DNA of 64,000 bases from a virus (lineage: Duplodnaviria; Caudoviricetes): IMG/VR virus record IMGVR_UViG_3300025129_000005; one strand, written 5' to 3'. Below, piece by piece: positions 36,027 through 37,452 of the stretch. Every line of letters begins with the position of its first letter. Position 1 is the stretch's first letter. A model generated the notes under the pieces. The model was not told where the DNA came from. It searched no databases and saw only the letters and a program-made list of their open reading frames with translations. The translations under genes and the position numbers were made by a program.

Positions 36027-36371
36027 ATGCCCCATCTAAATGAACATGAACAACAATCCATTGAACATTTTGGCAAATCATACACAGAGGTTCATCAATT
36101 CCTTGACCAATTTCAACCACAGTTTCGTGGACCAGAACACAGACGTATCCTTCACCATACAATGGGTGTAAACGAGGTTGTAAGACGTTTTGGTGAAGAA
36201 ACAAGATCAGTGGTCGAACTTCATATAAAAGAAGATTGGAAAGGGTATTGTGGAAGTCACTATGTCCCAACGTTAAAAGAAATCGACCTTGACAATTGGT
36301 TATTGCTTAATTATAATGTAAAGGAGTATATGGACAATTTAATGATGGAGTTGTATTCCGAAAAGCTGTGA
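36027..36371 (+). CDS. Conserved phage hypothetical protein (DUF6915-like)
   Basis: HE..SI..FG....EVHQFLD...HRRILHH. Confidence 0.6.
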   Translation: MPHLNEHEQQSIEHFGKSYTEVHQFLDQFQPQFRGPEHRRILHHTMGVNEVVRRFGEETRSVVELHIKEDWKGYCGSHYVPTLKEIDLDNWLLLNYNVKEYMDNLMMELYSEKL

Positions 36372-36544
36372 AGACATTATATAAAACTATTTCGTGGAGA
36401 TTTTTTGCAACATTTTTCACTTTTATTATATCTTTTGCGTTAACAGGATCAGTTGATATTGCATCCCAAATAACCACTCTAGAGTTTGTCGTGAAAATGT
36501 TGTTGTATTATATCCATGAGAAGGTGTGGGAGAAGGTCAGATGA
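36368..36544 (+). CDS. DUF2061 family small membrane protein (not in the ORF track)
   Basis: KTISWRFFATFFT...TG...A..I..LEFVVKMLLYYIHEKVW; 58 aa; GTG start. Confidence 0.8.
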   Translation: MKTLYKTISWRFFATFFTFIISFALTGSVDIASQITTLEFVVKMLLYYIHEKVWEKVR

Positions 36545-37452
36545 AATGTGTATGGTTAACCGGTCTACCCTGTTCAGGAAAGACCACAATTGCAAATGAA
36601 TTGAATAAAGTATTAACAAATTCGGTTGTATTGGATGGGGATGATCTAAGATCAACCTATTTAGGCAAAAATGTTGGATTTTCTCCACAAGATAGACATG
36701 ATCATATTTTAAGAATGGGTGAGATTGCAAAGCTTTTTGTTAAGACTGGTACATATGCCATTTGTTCATTCATATCACCAGAAGCTAAAGCAAGAGATAT
36801 GGTACGTGAATTGTTTAATGATGGTGATTTTATTGAGATTCATGTATCAGCGTCTAAGGATACATGTGCTGAACGTGATGTAAAGGGTATGTGGAAACGC
36901 GCCATGAATGGGGATATTACCCATTTCACAGGTTTTGATGCGCCTTATGAAGAACCGATTAATCCTGAGTATACAGCATTCACAGAGTTATCCACAATCA
37001 AAGAATGTGTAGATGATATTATTGATCTATTAAAACCTTATCACAAACCAGCATGTATGTTTATAGGTCGTTGGAATGGGATTTTCCATAATGGTCATGA
37101 TTATATTATTCGTAAGAAATTAGATGAAGGTAAATCCGTAACCCTTGCCATACGTGACGTGGCACCGGATAAAAACAACCCTTGGTCTGCTAAACAAGTC
37201 AAGGAAATGATTGATTATAGATTCAAGGACTATCCAGACGTAAAAACGATTATAATTCCAGATTTAGAATCTGTGGAGTACGGTCGTGGCGTTGGGTATG
37301 AAGTCAATGAGATTAAAGTTGATAAATATATTGCAGGTATCTCAGGAACAGAATGTAGAAAGATGATTTTAGAGGGTGATGATGATTGGAAACAGTTCGT
37401 ACCTGATGAGGTGGTTGAGTATTTAACAGACTATAATAAGAGGTTTACATGA
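36541..37452 (+). CDS. cysC: Adenylyl-sulfate kinase fused to a HIGH-type nucleotidyltransferase domain
   Basis: WLTGLPCSGKTT, LDGDDLR, FISP, RDVKG, FTG.DAPYEEP; C-domain GRW..FHNGH and ISGTECRK. Confidence 0.88.
   Translation: MKCVWLTGLPCSGKTTIANELNKVLTNSVVLDGDDLRSTYLGKNVGFSPQDRHDHILRMGEIAKLFVKTGTYAICSFISPEAKARDMVRELFNDGDFIEIHVSASKDTCAERDVKGMWKRAMNGDITHFTGFDAPYEEPINPEYTAFTELSTIKECVDDIIDLLKPYHKPACMFIGRWNGIFHNGHDYIIRKKLDEGKSVTLAIRDVAPDKNNPWSAKQVKEMIDYRFKDYPDVKTIIIPDLESVEYGRGVGYEVNEIKVDKYIAGISGTECRKMILEGDDDWKQFVPDEVVEYLTDYNKRFT

Follow-up and report, generated by a model that had tools for sequence, protein, structure and literature searches.

A predicted single-chain PAPS synthase with a minimal NMNAT-related nucleotidyltransferase domain in a T4-like phage

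The locus and its phage setting

Two plus-strand genes make up the locus described here, which lies in a window (the whole stretch of DNA that was analyzed) of 64 kb. The first gene (36368-36544) encodes a small predicted membrane protein of 58 amino acids that belongs to DUF2061 (PF09834; E = 7e-21). The second (36541-37452) is an open reading frame that begins with ATG and encodes a 303-amino-acid fusion of an APS kinase (CysC) domain with a nucleotidyltransferase domain. The stop codon of the DUF2061 gene overlaps the ATG of the fusion gene within the sequence ATGA (36541-36544). Gene callers chose an alternative GTG start at 36526, which would yield a protein of 308 amino acids, but the starts of most close homologs differ from the ATG by no more than a few residues.

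A predicted sigma-70-type promoter on the plus strand (36289-36317), consisting of TTGACA and TATAAT separated by 17 nt, matches the consensus at 12 of 12 positions. It is situated 50 nt 5' of the DUF2061 gene, inside the 3' end of a DUF6915 open reading frame, and no other perfect match to this consensus occurs in the window, against an expectation of 0.10 by chance. Counts of the T4 late-promoter motif were near chance. The presence of this perfect promoter, which is of the host type, hints that the predicted module is expressed early rather than late; with early expression, a virion glycan, which the original prediction had offered as an example of a sulfation target, fits less well.

The window originates from a large T4-like phage, as evidenced by genes for an SMC-like nuclease subunit, RecA/UvsX, gp32, ClpB, ThyX, and Hsp20, along with 21 tRNAs, and nearly all of its genes lie on the plus strand. 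Its DNA is 99.99 to 100% identical to public contigs, one of which was used to walk along the phage genome. The phage DNA is also present in aquifer and spring metagenomes, and no RNA data set was among those listed as containing it. The GC content of the fusion gene (0.36) is similar to that of core phage genes.

Several other features of this phage were recorded. The 21 tRNA genes (30159-40376) include three with a CAT anticodon and an Ile(TAT), and the DUF2061-fusion locus begins 360 nt beyond the main tRNA cluster. The window opens with a run of radical-SAM or radical-SAM-like genes (380-8746), which may belong to a tailoring pathway for which PAPS might be a substrate as well. The chaperones ClpB (25196-27460) and Hsp20 (43006-43506) are phage encoded, and a tandem pair of genes from the S-adenosylmethionine lyase family (PF23780; 41665-42967) lies 3' of a GH108 lysin gene. 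Just past the end of the window, a ThiF (E1-like) gene adjoins a Prok-JAB gene (L207:14900-16594), a ubiquitin-like conjugation pair or a sulfur-carrier pair. Also, the N-terminal part of a UvsW helicase has intein hits, and its C-terminal part is encoded separately, four genes away (L209:10848-15928).

The two domains of the fusion protein

The kinase domain occupies residues 1 to 164 (36541-37032, plus strand). Over residues 3 to 164, it scores 168.3 bits against the APS kinase profile TIGR00455, above the cut-off of 138.7, and it matches PF01583 with an E value of 3e-47. A model of this domain superposes on solved APS kinases with an rmsd of about 1.5 Å. The kinase motifs are all present, including the P-loop, LDGD, GF, DR, SP, RDVKG, and the FTG lid, as are the APS-binding Arg and Phe. 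At the DRxxN position, His55 replaces the usual Asn; among 137 homologs that were scored, 85 have Asn and 52 have His. A search with the fusion protein returned 1365 matches at E ≤ 1e-3, and because these include full-length fusions in both domain orders (kinase first and nucleotidyltransferase first), the fusion is not a product of chance. The arrangement that had been read from this DNA, DUF2061 followed by CysC fused to a domain of the HIGH superfamily, is thereby borne out.

The remainder of the protein, residues 168 to 303 (37042-37452, plus strand), is a minimal HxGH nucleotidyltransferase domain that alignments and gene context mark as a candidate ATP sulfurylase. At 136 amino acids, with FHNGH at residues 182 to 186 and ISGTECRK at residues 267 to 274, it agrees with the original description of a C-terminal domain of about 140 amino acids carrying these two motifs. 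The same motifs had been likened to those of ATP sulfurylase; they are indeed present, but archaeal NMNAT has them too, and so they are not specific to ATP sulfurylase. Conserved residues of the small domain are G176, R177, H183, G185, H186, R205, D241, G248-R249-x-V251-G252-Y253, S268, T270, and R273, and residues of the catalytic type hardly vary in an alignment of 150 diverse sequences. A signature, PDxxSVxxGRxVGY (residues 240 to 253; 37258-37299, plus strand), replaces about 45 residues of NMNAT and is predicted to form a swapped strand; its GRxVGY portion is present in 405 of 418 small domains that were scored.

Profile comparisons place the small domain much closer to NMNAT/NadM than to known ATP sulfurylases. 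Using hhalign, the match to a phage NadM was strong (99%, E = 3e-18), whereas that to Sat was poor (26%, E = 7e-4, with 60 columns covered). Nevertheless, the domain falls far below the cut-offs of the NMNAT/NadM profiles (39 versus 127 bits for NF002243 and 37 versus 181 bits for TIGR01527). Among Sat profiles, TIGR00339 gave 11.5 bits against a cut-off of 323, NF003166 gave an E value of 0.017, and PF01747 gave no match. The Sat motifs QTRNxxHxxH and GRDHAG and the PUA-like N-domain are absent, with GRWNGIFHNGH and GRGVGY in place, and hhalign does not recover a likeness between GRxVGY and the GRDHAGVG of Sat. CysD (TIGR02039) had no match in the fusion, and the CysN/CysC model NF004035 matched the kinase part only.

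The most conspicuous departure from NMNAT is the loss of about 35 residues from the NMN-binding region between strands 3 and 4. Residues 74 to 109 of MJ0541 correspond to only 8 positions of the small-domain profile, and the alignment with NadM has gaps of 38 columns. This stretch of NMNAT (residues ~74 to 109) is what we take to be the nicotinamide site, with its nicotinamide-stacking Trp.

Fold searches tested the first 75 to 85 residues of the small domain; families that they do not list may also match. The domain has the HxGH nucleotidyltransferase fold, as evidenced by its superposition on the Thermus ATP sulfurylase 1v47 (Z 6.0; rmsd, 2.1 Å over 72 residues), a fold common to the whole superfamily. 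The match to archaeal NMNAT/NadM is closer (VIA Z 7.4; rmsd, 1.7 Å over 73 residues). In a single-chain AlphaFold model, residues 74 to 94 of the small domain lie off the sheet, and the full-length rmsd to NMNAT is about 19 to 20 Å. With the crossover deleted, a lone chain cannot easily place strand 4 beside strand 1. A model with two copies of the small domain scored 0.54, compared with 0.00 for the best control; scores at that level were obtained for 20 of 30 proteins whose solved structures are pairs and for 1 of 23 whose structures are single chains. The two-copy runs had at least 93% contact agreement and a pLDDT of at least 80, with residues 242 to 248 of one copy pairing with residues 170 to 175 of the other. 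On the strength of this model, the shortened domain is probably a strand-swapped homodimer that completes its own sheet.

The family is large, with at least 7681 clusters of 68 to 245 amino acids at E ≤ 1e-15, although these may include some true NMNATs. A scan of viral sequences with a single protein as the query returned no match; a motif query did yield viral loci, and the motif search found 579 viral stretches; in species genomes, one exact motif identified 166. In a phylogenetic tree, the phage domain groups with other fused forms in a clade of their own (support, 99/98), apart from the standalone forms of bacteria, and so the function assigned to it is a transfer based on homology and on the fusion itself. 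A more distant form of the domain occurs in the Xylella phages Bacata, Sano, and Salvo and in Stenotrophomonas phage DLP_6. In two cultured-phage records that were opened (L166:5599-6339 and L167:4593-5324), the domain is fused to a kinase, with no sulfotransferase annotated nearby.

Neighboring genes in viruses and bacteria

Genes for sulfate activation surround the small domain in viruses. We retrieved 80 viral loci, some of them near-duplicates, by the small-domain motif alone. An APS kinase or APS kinase-like gene is fused to the domain or lies within 3 kb in 76 of the 80 (fused in 12), DUF2061 lies within 2 kb in 50, and a sulfotransferase is found somewhere in the locus in 37. Many viral contigs that are unrelated to one another contain this module, frequently with sulfotransferases alongside, and two close relatives of the fusion have a sulfotransferase next to them. 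Homologs that were opened individually had phage-like surroundings.

The search for a sulfotransferase that the original prediction had proposed as a check did locate one in this phage. Three viral-cluster profiles found none within the 64-kb window; the gene lies beyond it, on the same contig, and its product matches PF17784 (E = 4e-24) and has a GxxKTGxTS loop. It is located 43.8 kb downstream of the fusion, adjoining a helicase gene, and is not linked to the fusion. A supply of phage PAPS for sulfotransfer is thus plausible in that the phage encodes a sulfotransferase.

Bacterial genomes offer a view of which genes the small domain accompanies and which it may replace. Among 120 species genomes from the phylum that holds the Candidatus Dadabacteria records (completeness was not reported for them), 78 carry the small domain, 18 carry Sat, and 15 carry CysD, with zero overlap, while 9 have none of the three. 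This exclusion probably follows about three clades and so reflects few independent events. Thioredoxin-dependent APS reductase is present in 75 of the 78 small-domain carriers. CysC and NadD were found in all 33 carriers tested for them, 23 of which are represented by a chromosome-length record that covers most of the genome, and an NIR_SIR reductase and CoaD were found in 5 of 5. As an alternative source of APS, ATP adenylyltransferase (PF09830) was also sought in five Dadabacteria and was found in none. In Dadabacteria, the gene for the small domain stands alone, is present in a single copy, and lies far from cysC. In Sat-type relatives, the gene order is transporter-sat-cysH; in three of the four carrier cysH loci that were read, the same transporter gene directly precedes cysH, without sat.

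A similar pattern emerges from Bacteroidota. In a sample of 101 genomes from one family, 51 have CysC and 49 of these have CysD; the two CysC genomes without CysD are the only two small-domain carriers, and in both, the gene lies just downstream of cysC. The small domain is thus a candidate for the APS-forming step where Sat and CysD are missing, in Dadabacteria and in two of two Bacteroidota cases, albeit in few independent clades. Across carriers more broadly, CysD was also present in 4 of 50 tested. In all five CysD-containing Bacteroidota genomes that were checked, DUF2061 lies directly upstream of cysC-cysD. Other marine Bacteroidota loci have the order cysC, the small nucleotidyltransferase gene, a deoC-like gene, cysQ, a flippase-like gene, and sulfotransferases.

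A locus in Nitrospiraceae contains a sulfite reductase-like gene, an APS reductase gene, and the nucleotidyltransferase gene in a row. These carriers also have a Sat-CysC fusion (L203-L205) in which the Sat motifs have decayed, reminiscent of 3cr8, an APS kinase from Thiobacillus denitrificans. Three Dadabacteria carriers and one Nitrospiraceae carrier yielded no DUF2061, which argues that the enzyme does not need it. DUF2061 tracks PAPS-type clusters and is a usual companion of sulfate-activation genes.

The predicted reaction, its alternatives, and its meaning

Genomic context points to an ATP sulfurylase; sequence and fold are nearer to NMNAT than to Sat. We propose that the fusion gene by itself very probably specifies a PAPS synthase whose ATP sulfurylase part is of an unrecognized, minimal kind related to NMNAT and NadM, an activity predicted from gene context. 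The minimal PAPS synthase named in the original prediction thus finds good support in the gene neighborhood and in the exclusion with Sat and CysD, though not in the motif likeness first cited for it, which does not discriminate.

According to this proposal, the small domain, a member of an unnamed family of 110 to 155 amino acids, would convert ATP and sulfate to APS and PPi. ATP would be bound at HxGH, R177, and SGTxxR, as in the rest of the superfamily, and with the NMN segment gone, sulfate may be held where NMN would sit by the conserved arginines R205 and R249. The fused kinase would then turn APS into PAPS at once, pulling the unfavorable first step without the GTPase CysN. Such a kinase pull on APS formation, without CysN, is established for Sat-CysC fusions. 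PAPS would pass from there to the phage sulfotransferase or to host pathways; given the enzyme, we lean toward the phage's own sulfotransferase as its most likely destination.

The best-surviving alternative keeps this chemistry and changes its purpose alone, holding that the phage uses the enzyme to draw off APS or to raise the sulfur flux of a Desulfobacterota host rather than to feed its own sulfotransferase. We regard it as unlikely. The window has two small genes for multiheme cytochromes c of the c3/c7-like type (40475-40768 and 40765-41028), whose products begin like signal peptides, and the Atlas clusters nearest to the first are from Thermodesulfobacteriota. A host-related purpose would also agree with the host-type promoter and with the unlinked sulfotransferase. 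Nevertheless, a kinase by itself would be enough to drain APS, a sulfate reducer already has Sat, and the module is shared by numerous viral contigs of unrelated origin, where sulfotransferases are often close by. The diversion of APS in a sulfur-metabolizing host, an idea put forward when the locus was first noticed, went unsupported; the host may be a member of the Desulfobacterota, as suggested by the cytochrome c3-like genes only.

It is considerably less probable that the pair activates another small oxyanion (e.g., phosphate or phosphoramidate), to which the kinase adds a 3' phosphate. There is precedent in the CysC homolog Cj1415, which acts on CDP-amidate in the synthesis of O-methyl phosphoramidate in Campylobacter. 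The His that replaces Asn in the kinase is in keeping with such a substrate, as is the absence of the RDxKG...FTG lid from 36 of the 76 viral partner kinases (~140 to 150 amino acids); some of these members may use another substrate or may represent a trimmed class of APS kinase. Moreover, some fusions reside in sugar-modification clusters with no sulfotransferase match in the stretch read. APS reductase, CysQ, sulfotransferases, and DUF2061 as partners speak for sulfate instead, as do the exclusion with both known ATP sulfurylases and a kinase score above the APS kinase cut-off.

We give marginally less credence still to the reading suggested by database labels, in which the small domain acts as a cytidylyltransferase or transfers adenylyl groups to NMN or NaMN and its link to CysC is incidental. 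Archaeal NMNAT and NadM are the best sequence and fold matches, and homologs are named "cytidyltransferase-like protein" or "FAD synthase" in their source records. That reading must contend with scores far under the NMNAT cut-offs and with the lack of a counterpart to NMNAT residues ~74 to 109. NadD, moreover, is already present in 50 of 50 small-domain carriers tested, and such an activity would leave unexplained why carriers lack Sat and CysD in the exclusion pattern. Finally, a noncatalytic role for the small domain, as a nucleotide-binding regulator or dimerization module of the kinase, accords with its truncated fold and strong predicted self-association but is very improbable in light of its almost invariant catalytic-type residues and its standalone gene far from cysC in Dadabacteria.

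How does a one-chain PAPS synthase of this kind compare with known systems? Bifunctional PAPS synthases and Sat-CysC fusions (e.g., human PAPSS1/2, PDB 1x6v, and the Aquifex protein, 2gks) likewise join an APS kinase to an adenylyltransferase of the HxGH superfamily. In PAPSS, the kinase is N-terminal, as it is in the phage fusion. The phage kinase domain is about 40% identical to its counterparts in these systems, with an rmsd of about 1.5 Å. However, the phage fusion has 303 amino acids rather than 520 to 620, its transferase of 136 amino acids is NMNAT-like, and it lacks the PUA-like domain, QTRN, GRDHAG, and a match to PF01747. With archaeal NMNAT and NadM (MJ0541, 1f9a; M. thermoautotrophicum, 1ej2; Synechocystis and Francisella NadM, 2qjo and 2qjt), the small domain shares the GR-x(3-4)-FHxGH start, the NP helix, SGTxxR, and the C-terminal helices (profile comparison, E = 3e-16). 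It differs from those proteins in that its NMN-binding half has about 35 residues fewer, Arg stands at the IGSA position, the GRxVGY signature is present, a Nudix partner is lacking, the surrounding genes are sulfur genes, and a strand-swapped dimer is predicted. The DUF2061-cysC-cysD clusters of Bacteroidota have the same order as the phage locus, with the sulfurylase slot after cysC; in Bacteroidota, this slot holds CysD, a member of the PAPS reductase-like family that needs the GTPase CysN, whereas in the phage, it holds one small HxGH domain. The fusion would work like a PAPS synthase and yet fall outside the Sat and CysD families.

To our knowledge, the annotation of sulfate activation relies on only two ATP sulfurylase families, Sat and CysDN. 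None of the family models that were matched describes the small domain as an ATP sulfurylase, and no such description was found in the literature covered, which mostly excluded subscription journals. In both marine and freshwater environments, viral cysC is known to be abundant and expressed (Kieft et al., bioRxiv 10.1101/2021.01.05.425418); in the portions of that study available to us, cysC is placed in host assimilatory sulfate reduction and a partner nucleotidyltransferase is not mentioned.

We also consider it likely, if a shade less so than the PAPS synthase reading itself, that the small domain represents a third ATP sulfurylase family of 110 to 155 amino acids, related to NMNAT, independent of GTP, and possibly a strand-swapped dimer. 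In most Dadabacteria and in some of the marine Bacteroidota, this family would be the sole sulfate activator, and thousands of viruses would spread it in a module with DUF2061, CysC, and a sulfotransferase. In the phage described here, it would form a single-chain PAPS synthase of 303 amino acids, about half the known length, which might find use in PAPS regeneration for enzymatic sulfation.

If true, a third family, now labeled "cytidyltransferase-like," would close a pathway hole in 75 Dadabacteria genomes that have APS reductase and neither known enzyme. Calls that uncultured lineages cannot activate sulfate would change as well; most SAR11, for example, are stated to lack ATP sulfurylase (PMC10356861). 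Such an enzyme would also explain why viral cysC is frequently found without sat or cysD, as the viruses would carry the whole PAPS supply for their sulfotransferases.
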